Source: a virus
Virus genome (UHGV): UHGV-0056195
Strand: one strand, 5' to 3'
DNA length: 13,210 bases
Part shown: piece by piece, positions 1 through 3,000 of the stretch
Position numbering within the stretch: position 1 is the first letter of the stretch
Layout of the letters: each line of letters opens with the position of its first letter
Program-made: the position numbers

Positions 1-3000
1 GGTAGCCGCTGAGATTGAAGCGCTGGCCAGTGGTGCTGATAAGGATGCAATTGTGCGGGAGGCTCTTCTTCGTGATTTTAATACTCCACCCTTTAAAAAA
101 GTGCCGGCTTACTGGCTTCATCCGGGGCTGACTTATCTTAAAGTGCGTATTTAGTGGGCCAGGGACAGCGGCTGAATATTTAATATATCCATGAACACCA
201 AAATCAAATACGGCCTGTCGGCTGCCGTTCTGGCGCTGATTGGTGCTGGCGCATCTGCTCCTCAGATACTTGACCAGTTTCTGGACGAAAAAGAAGGTAA
301 CCACACCACGGCATACCGTGATGGCGCGGGTATCTGGACCATCTGTCGCGGTGCCATTCTGGTGGATGGTAAACCTGTCGTCCCGGGCATGAAGTTGTCG
401 AAGGAGAAATGCGACCAGGTTAACGCCATCGAACGTGATAAGGCGCTGGCATGGGTGGAGAAAAACATCAAAGTGCCATTGACCGAACCCCAGAAAGCGG
501 GGATCGCGTCATTCTGTCCGTACAACATTGGTCCCGGTAAGTGTTTCCCGTCGACGTTTTACAGACGAATTAATGCTGGTGATCGCAGGGGAGCATGTGA
601 GGCGATTCGCTGGTGGATTAAGGACGGTGGCAGAGACTGCCGTATTCGTTCAAACAACTGCTACGGTCAGGTATCCCGTCGTGACCAGGAGAGCGCGCTG
701 GCGTGCTGGGGTATCGACAGATAAGCAGAATATTTTGCTGAAAAATAAGGCATGGCCACGCGGGCGGATAACATGAAATCCTGCGAACTGTCGAAACGTA
801 AGTGAATAAAAGTAAAAACCCCGTTTGTTGGCAGCAAGCGGGGTTTTGTTTTTATGGCAGTAAGCTATGGGAGGCTGCCTTGATTGATTTTAGCAAACTG
901 ATTAGGGAGTTGCGACTCATGATTAGTCAATTACCAAACTGGAAATTTTTGCTGGTCTGGAGCATCCCTTTTTTATGGGTAGTATCCCAGTTAATTGTGG
1001 CAATTAAGGGGTAGCTATGTCAGACAAACTCATAACGCCGGCAAAGGTCCTGTGTGTGATTGTCGGTATTTCATTTTCACTAATGCTGGTTGCTCTTTTT
1101 CTGTCCCTCGCCTGGGTGATGTTGTCTTCGTCGGGGCTGCTGGGGTGACAGTGACTGATGACATCAGCAGAGCGCTGGCTTTTGCTATTAAGTGGGTGGC
1201 TGTTGGTATTGCTGTGTCTCCGATGCTGTATGGGCTGGCAAAACTGGTCATTGCGCTGAAATCGTGAACTTTAAAAAGATGAGTGCTGAACTTATTCGGG
1301 CAATGGCATTTGCCATTCGTATTGTGGCCATTGCTGTTCTGGTCTGGGCAATCCGTTGGTGGTGATATGAACCGTGTTCTGTGTGTGGTGATTATTGTCC
1401 TGCTGGTAGCCTGTGGTGTGCTTAGTCTGGGGCTGAATCATTACCGCGATAACGCCATCACCTACAAAGCGCAGCGCGATAAAAAAGTCAGTGAGCTGAA
1501 ACTGGCGAATGCCACTATTACTGACATGCAGCAGCGCCAGCGAGATGTCGCTGCGCTTGATGCCAGATACACGAAGGAATTAGCCGATGCGAGAGCTGAA
1601 ATTGAAACTCTGCGCGCTGATGTTGCCGCTGGTCGTAAGCGCCTGCGGGTCAACGCCACCTGCCCCGGTACCGTGCGTGAAGCCACCGGCACCTCCAGCG
1701 TGGATAATGCAACCGGCCCCCGACTGGCAGACACCGCTGAACGGGATTATTTCATCCTCAGAGAACGGTTGATGACAATGCAGAAGCAGCTGGAAGGGGC
1801 GCAGGAATATATCCGCTCAGTGTCTGAAATAAGTTTTGCTGATGCGCCGTATCGTCGCCGTATTCCCGCATTAACAGAGACCGCAGCCACCTTATCTGCG
1901 TGAGTGTGCGGGGGTAATCAAAAACGATGCACACCGGGTTTTCTCATTTTTCACGAGATGGGAGCGATTTCCCGCGAAGCCGCCTGTCCGGTGCGGTGGT
2001 GGAAGAAACCGGATAAAACAACCGCATTGTACAAATATCGATCAAACATGGCGCTGCTGTGTGAAATCTGAAAAATCACAGCGGCCATTGTGCATCAGTT
2101 TTTAACAGAGGACGTCAGAAAGTGACATGGCAAAGCTGGACTGGAAAAAGCTGGAGCAGGCATTCCGACGCGAACATGCCGAAACGGGAATAACATTACT
2201 GGACTGGTGCCGGAAGAAAAAGATTAATTACAACACCGCCAGAACCCGTATAAAAATGGGCAAAATCGATCATGAAATTGATCATAAAACCGATCATGAA
2301 ATCGATCATGACATCTCAGATGAAGAACCCAGCAATGACGCGTGTTCCGACGATGAAAAATGCGCAAAAAACTCTGAAAAAAACTGCGCAAATTCGGCAG
2401 AAACGAAACGGATTCGTGGTTCCCGACTTTTACCTCCTTCAAACGCTTTTTCTCAGCGAAACACCCACGCCGTAAGACACCGTGGATATGCGAAGTATCT
2501 TGAGGCAGATAACCTCATGGATGATGCGTCCGACATGGTGCTGTTCGATGAACTGGTGTTCACCCGGGCCCGCGCACTTTCAGTAACTAAGGCACTTAAA
2601 GGGATGTTCGCCGACCTGGAAGAGGCAACTGACGTGGAAACCCGTGTTGCTCTTTACGACAAAATACTCAAAGCTGAACAGGCCCTTGAGCGGAATATTG
2701 CCCGTATCGAGTCAATTGAACGCTCATTGCTGACGCTGGACGTCCTGGCTGAGACAGCACCAAAACTTCGTGCTGACCGGGAAAGAATCAACGCCGCCAG
2801 AGATAAACTCAGAGCTGAAACCGATATTCTGACCAGCCAGCGTCGGGGCGTTGTTACGCCTGTCAGTGACATCGTGTCATCGCTGCATGAAATGAGTAAT
2901 TCGGGGAGACTGGATGACATTCCGGAAGAATGAACCGCGATGTGATGAGCCGTCAGAAATGACCGAGGCTGAACAACGTCTGTTCATCATGACCAGACTG

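Follow-up and report, generated by a model that had tools for sequence, protein, structure and literature searches.

UHGV-0056195 is a viral genome sequence of 13,210 nucleotides (the window), and it corresponds to the late part of a lambdoid prophage of E. coli. Between its endolysin gene R and its spanin gene Rz lie two adjacent small open reading frames (ORFs), here called p1 (1145..1267) and p2 (1279..1365). Judged from their sequences, both belong to one small and mobile family of micro-proteins that span the inner membrane once, and both are shortened at the N-terminus. Our best explanation of the whole feature, at a probability of roughly 40%, is that these shortened members were stacked by recombination, are expressed late through coupled translation, and modulate lysis in a dispensable manner. 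The parts of this explanation differ in strength. That p1 and p2 are real, homologous, late-expressed membrane micro-protein genes we regard as very probable. The feature is real and common and belongs to the small membrane proteins of phage lysis cassettes; its role in the cassette is proposed only tentatively. An earlier note on this DNA had described p1 and p2 as a tandem pair of amphipathic paralogs, derived from an old duplication and perhaps acting as an interacting pair, and its reading was partly supported.

Homology, anatomy and selection of the family

Both ORFs are present where the earlier note had placed them, and the common core it claimed for them was recovered by pairwise alignment: DISRALAFAIKWVAVGIAV in p1 aligned with a 19-residue stretch of p2 at a BLOSUM62 local score of 47. 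In 20,000 composition-preserving shuffles the mean score was 21.6 (standard deviation 4.3) and 0.01% of the shuffles reached 47 (z = 6.1, p~1e-4). Since this score stands out from the shuffles, and since other small hydrophobic ORFs nearby gave z<3.5 against p1 and p2, the core similarity is not mere hydrophobic likeness. At the DNA level no significant similarity between p1 and p2 was found (p = 0.12), which is consistent with the ancient split that the note had read from divergence of both protein and DNA. The term amphipathic did not fit, as the hydrophobic moment (0.15-0.18) and mean hydrophobicity (0.74-0.78) are those of a typical transmembrane (TM) helix.

Both peptides matched the same three families, phrog_4493, phrog_3246 and phrog_1115, with E-values of 6.4e-25 (phrog_1115), 2.4e-20 and 5e-17 for p1 and of 3.8e-6 (phrog_4493), 9.2e-5 and 0.053 for p2. 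The PHROG profiles of these families have over-extended N-termini and record neither a function nor a mutual relation. Two types of C-terminus occur, the K type ending in …SPMLYGLAKLVIALKS (p1) and the R type ending in RWW (p2), and bridging sequences show a shared leader in front of either tail. Reciprocal hybrids were also found: P0048 joins a p2-like N-terminus to a K tail, and P0098 joins a K-type N-terminus to an R tail. A further bridging form, P0135 from Yersinia, has a body of K length with an R-type RWW end. We read phrog_1115, phrog_4493 and phrog_3246 as one family split in three. The RefSeq hypothetical proteins WP_042004856 and WP_097447494/WP_032140280 are the same proteins as the p1/p2 family. 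The proteins were catalogued only as hypothetical.

The K/R family is narrow as well as small: when 1.84 billion representative proteins were searched with a profile, only 30 clusters were recovered, all of 20-87 aa. It is found in E. coli, Salmonella, Citrobacter, Klebsiella aerogenes, Yersinia, Achromobacter and Silvimonas. A first scan of genome contigs yielded no confirmed locus, and a second yielded Silvimonas only.

Full-length members are 37-60 aa long with one TM helix. They begin with a basic leader (M-x-KYKR-hh-LRL-x-M). An acidic tail follows, bearing the motif G-[LI]-E-x-x-[AT]-P, and about 8 residues further on comes the core R-A-x-A-F-A-I-[KR], which leads into the TM helix. In an alignment of 30 members the core residues F, A and I do not vary, and AlphaFold predicts one long helix at residues 22-59 (predicted local distance difference test, pLDDT, 87-95). 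The core and a predicted TM helix are present in both p1 and p2. Their N-termini, (V/M)TVTDDISRA in p1 and MSAELIRA in p2, fall at the position homologous to VTDDISRA, so the leader and the GLExxAP motif are absent from both and they are truncated forms. Such short forms have an acidic or neutral N-tail of ~16 aa, a TM segment of 18-20 aa, and a C-terminal R/K.

The 50-60-aa long form is probably translated, because a start codon and a Shine-Dalgarno (SD) sequence are kept at the leader position in four sequence contexts (ATG, GTG, GTG and TTG), because in Silvimonas and in locus L183 this start codon directly follows an in-frame stop, and because the leader Arg and Phe codons vary synonymously between distant members. 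The Yersinia copy has no leader start. Full-length members also carry a conserved internal Met preceded by GAGG, a possible second start. These two candidate starts were seen in full-length members; the window copies have neither the long-form start nor the internal Met start.

Purifying selection on the family is strong, with in-frame omega values of 0.09-0.14 against out-of-frame values above 0.5. These values are pairwise sums and phylogenetically non-independent, and the frame-specific contrast is unambiguous. For the R-type long form, 13 DNA alleles gave an omega of 0.09 in the coding frame and of 1.45 and 4.77 in the two others, with 10/1/29 variable sites at the three codon positions. 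Omega was 0.01 for the R tail and 0.17-0.19 for the R core (>1.1 out of frame), and 0.11 for the K core (variable sites 5/0/13 by codon position) and 0.14 for the K tail; for the leader it was 0.25 (R) and 1.3 (K), with few sites each. The same contrast excludes longer readings of the locus: the frames in which p2 would start from GTG 1192, or in which Rz would be extended from 1283, had omega >=1, and the p1 and p2 frames were well below 1. The earlier note had allowed that p1 and p2 might be chance ORFs, lacking conservation in related phages and any translation signal. Conservation in related prophages was looked for and found, together with purifying selection and translation signals, and the chance reading is set aside.

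Origin of the tandem and its distribution

The tandem is, from breakpoint positions, a recombinational stack of two truncated alleles, assembled from cassettes that each carry one type. Homology with the window is contiguous over 1017-1420 in L083 and over 1149-1420 in L011, and stand-alone long R genes are homologous only from 1306, the AFAI core. The breakpoint of p1 falls at 1149-1151, with an alternative GTG for p1 at 1151, and the GTG at 1145 is the same GTG that forms the overlap of the ORF B stop with the Rz start in PhiR12_1. In the diverged p1 allele of L176 this GTG is replaced by ATG. On this reading recombination put a leaderless K copy behind ORF B, using the GTG that elsewhere starts Rz, and put the 28-aa R copy between the K copy and Rz. 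Short forms like these two copies, termed N3, always come second in a coupled pair of small ORFs, with either a K or an R tail. The earlier note was right that the two copies are ancient homologs. Its inference of an old duplication did not stand, in that a tandem duplication in place is rejected by the lack of significant DNA similarity and by breakpoints that show assembly through recombination.

Gene order was surveyed at ~170 loci, in which the best matches are over-represented. The commonest arrangements were R-K-ORF B-Rz (71 loci), R-R type-Rz (53 loci), and GH108 endolysin-R type-Lp with related orders (26 loci), where Lp is a lipoprotein gene. GH108-K-ORF B-Lp was found at 4 loci. The arrangement of the window, R-ORF A-ORF B-K-R type-Rz, occurred at 4 loci and at one degraded locus. 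Further orders were R-K-R type-Rz (L011), R-K-ORF B-K-R type-Rz (L083), K-ORF C-R type-Lp (L015), and R-ant-ORF B-Rz in 933W.

Among 5426 complete E. coli genomes, K-type DNA was present in 1594, the full-length R type in ~808, and the exact tandem in 584. As 581 of these 584 blocks are at least 99% identical, the frequency of the tandem says little about selection. E. coli EC958 and strain 4/1-1 are two carriers of the block, and the phages PhiR12_1 and GER2 are examples with a full-length K or R gene. In DLP12 and Qin of K-12, and in many Stx phages, R abuts Rz without these ORFs; K-12 was considered as an experimental handle and rejected, since both of these prophages are without family members.

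The lysis cassette, its signals and its neighbours

The records nearest to the window are E. coli chromosomes at 99.1% identity, and many Stx-converting and other lambdoid phages match it at 87-97%. Lysozyme R is followed by a terminator, by four tightly packed, small and hydrophobic ORFs (ORF A, ORF B, p1 and p2), and by Rz with the embedded Rz1; terminase and head genes lie downstream of Rz/Rz1. R and Rz bound the cluster on its upstream and downstream sides, respectively. In a near-identical genome, the cassette has a class II (S21-type) holin gene a short way upstream of the part that matches the window. All four small ORFs are already in RefSeq (PGAP) as hypothetical proteins. Their coordinates, with those of the neighbouring features, are given in Table 1.

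Table 1. Features of the lysis cassette in the window, with the Lp genes located in other loci
Feature	Position	Strand	Description
Endolysin R	191..724	+	GH24 lysozyme; PF00959 E=1.4e-24; phrog_7 endolysin; lysozyme in RefSeq
Intrinsic terminator hairpin	815..847	+	15-pair stem and T-run directly 3' of R; AAAACCCCGTTTGTTGGCAGCAAGCGGGGTTTT GTTTTTATGG
ORF A	919..1014	+	31 aa, hydrophobic, MISQLPNWKFLLVWSIPFLWVVSQLIVAIKG; SD GGGAG 9 nt upstream; phrog_6632 E=1.3e-12
ORF B	1017..1148	+	43 aa, single TM; SD AAGGGG, 5 nt spacing; phrog_4906 E=4.5e-21
p1	1145..1267	+	GTG start, TGA stop, 40 codons; K type; …RALAFAIKWVAVGIAVSPMLYGLAKLVIALKS; phrog_1115 E=6.4e-25
p2	1279..1365	+	ATG start, TGA stop, 28 codons; R type, short N3 form; phrog_4493 E=3.8e-6
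Junction CGT TGG TGG TGA T ATG	1354..1369	+	the RWW and stop codons of p2 supply GGTGGTGA, the ribosome-binding site of Rz (of Lp in other loci)
Rz i-spanin	1367..1903	+	PF03245 E=3.7e-49; phrog_13
Rz1 o-spanin lipoprotein	1587..1772	+	inside Rz, +1 frame; PF06085 E=1.7e-21; phrog_3198
Lp in L005	1586..1768		
Lp in L009	3294..3491		
Lp in L015	3416..		
Lp in L172	2764..2961		

A sigma-70 consensus scan found no promoter on the + strand, a crude scan from which weak or non-sigma-70 sites may escape. The sole strong terminator lies upstream of the small ORFs and not downstream of them. From these two observations together we infer a late, Q-modified transcript: the four small ORFs would be transcribed only from the Q-antiterminated late promoter, by read-through of the terminator after R. 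This terminator is kept in L004, L006, L011, L083 and L117, and an analogous hairpin lies 3' of the lysozyme gene in Silvimonas. With an A-run before it and a T-run after it, it is possibly bidirectional, and it stands inside the late operon. Across 1..2200 a single promoter-like site was predicted, on the - strand at 1023..994, against 2.4 expected by chance; transcription from it to the terminator would yield an RNA of ~170 nt antisense to ORF A and its SD, which we mention as a lead only.

Translation would proceed by coupling. The GTG of p1 overlaps the stop of ORF B (GTGA), p2 starts 11 nt past the p1 stop after an A-rich spacer with no SD, and the end of p2 would serve as the ribosome-binding site of Rz. 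The junction at the p2 stop is invariant at ~90 loci with Rz or Lp downstream, and it is also found in Yersinia.

R has a SAR-like (signal-anchor-release-like) N-terminal segment, YGLSAAVLALIGAGASAP, and the catalytic spacing E-8-D-5-T; from its sequence and from what is established for P21-type endolysins it appears to be a SAR-type lysozyme. The coding status of ORF A is weakly supported: it has two alleles only, in window-type loci only. The longer PGAP call for it (802..1014) is probably an over-call, since its translation would cross the terminator hairpin. ORF B is under moderate, weaker constraint, with 21 alleles and an omega of 0.47 in frame against 0.75 and 1.36 out of frame. It adjoins Rz through a stop/start overlap in hundreds of Stx phages including 933W, whose reference record has no annotation for it, and its homologues in GH108-type cassettes are 53-63% identical.

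Lp is a 60-aa lipoprotein (MKRKHWTHRMPRTAAKWALVAILVPFLLVGC…, phrog_7528, no Pfam match) that takes the place of Rz in GH108 and M15 cassettes as the gene to which the small ORFs are coupled, and no recognisable Rz/Rz1 was found in the Lp cassettes within the regions fetched. Pseudogenised copies of Lp lie ~900 bp downstream of Rz in GER2-like phages (L004 2806..2967). A miniature spanin formed by the small ORFs and Lp was ruled out on size: the K/R proteins have 28-60 aa in total with at most ~16 residues outside the membrane, and in the window canonical Rz/Rz1 follows downstream.

Rz of the window has 178 aa against the usual 155-157; it departs from the usual sequence after …GAQEYIR and is without the usual C-terminal …EQCLR, including the cysteine. 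This suggests a recombination breakpoint at the 3' end of Rz, which might affect spanin function. Further downstream, a 463-aa ORF (11351..12742) with an Ala/Glu-rich coiled region and then long collagen-like G-x-y repeats presumably encodes a tail-fibre-type protein. Its repeats give long spurious ORFs on the opposite strand and in other frames.

A possible role in lysis and the competing readings

We tentatively propose, with somewhat less than even confidence, that p1 and p2 are accessory inner-membrane factors of the lysis programme. The proposal is drawn from gene position. Across the ~170 loci, the gene immediately before a family member encodes a GH24 SAR lysozyme, a GH108 endolysin, an M15 peptidase or a T4-type lysozyme, and the gene immediately after it is Rz or Lp; family members thus placed are small membrane proteins adjoining an endolysin in a late lysis cassette, as a holin would be. 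Locus L183 (2468..3330) has a full-length member, MNYKRFFVRLNMDEGLEIDAP…RWW, whose gene overlaps the start of that for a 236-aa lysozyme with a signal-anchor-like N-terminus. It stands directly after tail-fibre genes, in the usual holin/pinholin slot, and no other membrane protein was called upstream of it. In Yersinia enterocolitica (L179/L180, 2501..3101) a 49-aa member and Rz, preceded by a perfect 17-bp hairpin, lie beside non-phage genes and an IS110 element. This arrangement occurs in at least 1000 contigs and suggests that the species as a whole carries a prophage remnant in which both genes have been kept.

On this proposal the peptides would insert into the inner membrane and there modulate the membrane step of lysis, in an accessory and dispensable capacity. 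They might affect the timing or robustness of depolarisation and hole formation, or the hand-over to the spanin, and they would act individually rather than as an obligate pair.

Several observations weigh against a role in lysis. No specific partner is obvious, since members occur with endolysins of four unrelated types and with at least two sets of holins. The C-termini …ALKS and …IRWW offer no long charged tail of the holin kind. No Pfam or NCBIfam match to a recognised holin family was obtained at E<=1, and hhalign against the class II holin gave a probability of 1.6%. One context lies outside lysis cassettes altogether, that of the Achromobacter-type P0142 (L181/L182, 2501..2629), which is placed between a spike-like gene and Sheath_initiator/Baseplate_J genes. 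Literature searches by accession and by concept, in the Ribo-seq supplements for enterohaemorrhagic E. coli (EHEC) Sakai and in a survey of small ORFs in Enterobacteriaceae, returned nothing on function. As for the window copies, they are without the conserved leader and GLExxAP motif, truncated forms have pairwise omega values of only 0.3-0.5 with few substitutions, and in phiSTEC1589-Stx1c (L008) p1 is frameshifted and has lost its GTG while p2 carries a 39-nt deletion. With both copies inactivated in that phage, those of the window may contribute little.

A metagenomic sequence, P0062 (L184 43..222), joins the first 36 residues of a class II holin to a K tail at …SPSQW|VAVGVAV…; it is known from a single 554-nt scaffold and may be an assembly artefact or a rare recombinant. 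This chimera prompted a comparison of the K helix with the second transmembrane domain (TMD2) of the S21-type pinholin. Pairwise comparison gave a score of 36 for K only (z 4.1-4.7, p 0.001-0.004, with no correction for the 18 tests made) and nothing for R or the Yersinia member; hhalign gave a probability of 1.6%, and a family relationship was discarded. A paper on BSPM4 orf52 proved to concern an unrelated phage. Searches of Pfam, NCBIfam, PADLOC, PDB sequences and Rfam gave no match for p1, p2, the full-length forms, ORF A, ORF B or Lp.

A rather unlikely alternative is that the family is cargo, that is, moron-like membrane micro-proteins in a permissive hotspot between R and Rz, serving for example superinfection exclusion or the modulation of host membrane proteins. 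The R-Rz gap is indeed mosaic, holding ORF A, ORF B, ORF C, K and R in various combinations and, in 933W and L176, even an antirepressor gene. The family is mobile among lysis cassettes of unrelated kinds, and one member belongs to a baseplate module. Small single-pass exclusion proteins of prophages are well established, HK97 gp15 being one. Set against this, the sigma-70 scan showed no + strand promoter and the terminator lies upstream only, which makes expression in a lysogen unlikely and departs from the usual moron layout. In addition, tight translational coupling to Rz or Lp is conserved, PADLOC gave no match, and in distant taxa (Silvimonas, L183) members again stand beside an endolysin.

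We also consider it unlikely that p1 and p2 of this prophage are functionless or decaying by-products of recombination, persisting through the recent spread of one block. The near-identity of almost all tandem blocks, the loss of leader and GLExxAP motif from both copies, the raised omega of truncated forms, the lesions in phiSTEC1589-Stx1c and the frameshifted database alleles (P0056, P0067, P0097, P0107) would all be accounted for. Yet intact and diverged N3 forms occur in at least four architectures and with both tails (L011, L015, L172-175, L176), the diverged p1 allele has upgraded its start from GTG to ATG, and omega in truncated forms is still below 1. The 3' end of p2 would be needed in any case as the ribosome-binding site of Rz, whatever the fate of its product.

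A more elaborate form of the lysis proposal, to which we give only a slim chance, would make the K/R proteins a new class of single-helix lysis-timing regulator with dual-start products. The long form, with its +5 basic leader, would have its N-terminus pinned in the energised cytoplasm, and the short form would insert in the reverse orientation, N-out, like Pf3 coat protein. The ratio of the forms, or a flip triggered by depolarisation, could then tune the firing of a pinholin/SAR-endolysin set or of a canonical holin, and the leaderless p1 and p2 would be constitutive short-form variants.

The earlier note had suggested that p1 and p2 interact as holin and antiholin or as toxin and immunity protein. 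An obligate pair from an old tandem duplication now appears very unlikely. Two paralogous membrane peptides do lie side by side in a lysis cassette, and combinations of K and R arose in more than one context (L011, L015, L083), but each type is far commoner alone, the breakpoints indicate assembly by recombination, both copies are truncated and were lost together in phiSTEC1589-Stx1c, and the cassette has its own class II holin. Our best guess is that a lysis-related membrane role holds for the family as single genes and not for p1 and p2 as a pair. The likeness to type I toxins that the note had also raised, in size and hydrophobicity recalling Hok, Ldr and TisB, is highly improbable as an account of function: as the note had observed, no antisense RNA is evident (no - strand promoter or terminator within 1145..1365 and no Rfam match at E<=1), the ORFs have no promoter of their own and are embedded and coupled in a late operon, and in the surveyed loci ORFs of the p1/p2 type occur in lysis cassettes and never as stand-alone loci.

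Lambdoid lysis cassettes are among the best-studied genetic modules, and yet they hold an unnamed, conserved and selected family of tiny membrane proteins. About 30% of complete E. coli genomes carry a member, and Stx phages and ST131 prophages are among the carriers. ORF B represents a second unannotated family in the same cassettes, absent even from the 933W reference annotation. Shiga toxin release depends on prophage-mediated lysis. If these proteins tune lysis timing, phage burst size and Shiga toxin release would be affected, and if the dual-start regulator exists it would form a widespread and unrecognised layer of control on both phage and toxin release. Even if the family is cargo, three PHROGs have been merged and their motifs and start sites defined. 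Because the tandem is a stack of truncated copies, the full-length single genes and their possible dual-start leader are the more interesting targets.

Compared with known systems, the K/R proteins resemble the holins lambda S105/S107 and S21 68/71 (PF04971) in being small inner-membrane proteins of a late lysis cassette beside the endolysin, and full-length members may resemble dual-start holin/antiholin genes in having a short form and a long form with extra basic residues. They differ from holins in having one TM segment rather than two or three, in lacking a charged C-terminal domain, and in standing downstream of the endolysin, in a cassette that already has a holin. Hok, Ldr, TisB and Ibs are likewise short hydrophobic single-helix peptides, but for p1 and p2 no antisense RNA, promoter of their own or Rfam match was found, and p1 and p2 are operonic and coupled. 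The short forms share with Pf3 coat protein an acidic N-tail, one TM segment and a short basic C-tail, a likeness of design with no homology, and this analogy suggests N-out insertion of the YidC type; if the basic leader is translated, the N-terminus would stay in the cytoplasm, unlike that of Pf3. P2 LysA, P1 LydB, T4 RI/RIII and Mu gp25 releasin tune when or how holin and endolysin act (for Mu lysis, PMC9239132), and each of them has genetic evidence. The K/R proteins are unrelated to these in sequence, and LysA, LydB, RI/RIII and releasin are larger or of other topology. What the two groups have in common is that they are dispensable, membrane-associated, and encoded in or near lysis cassettes.

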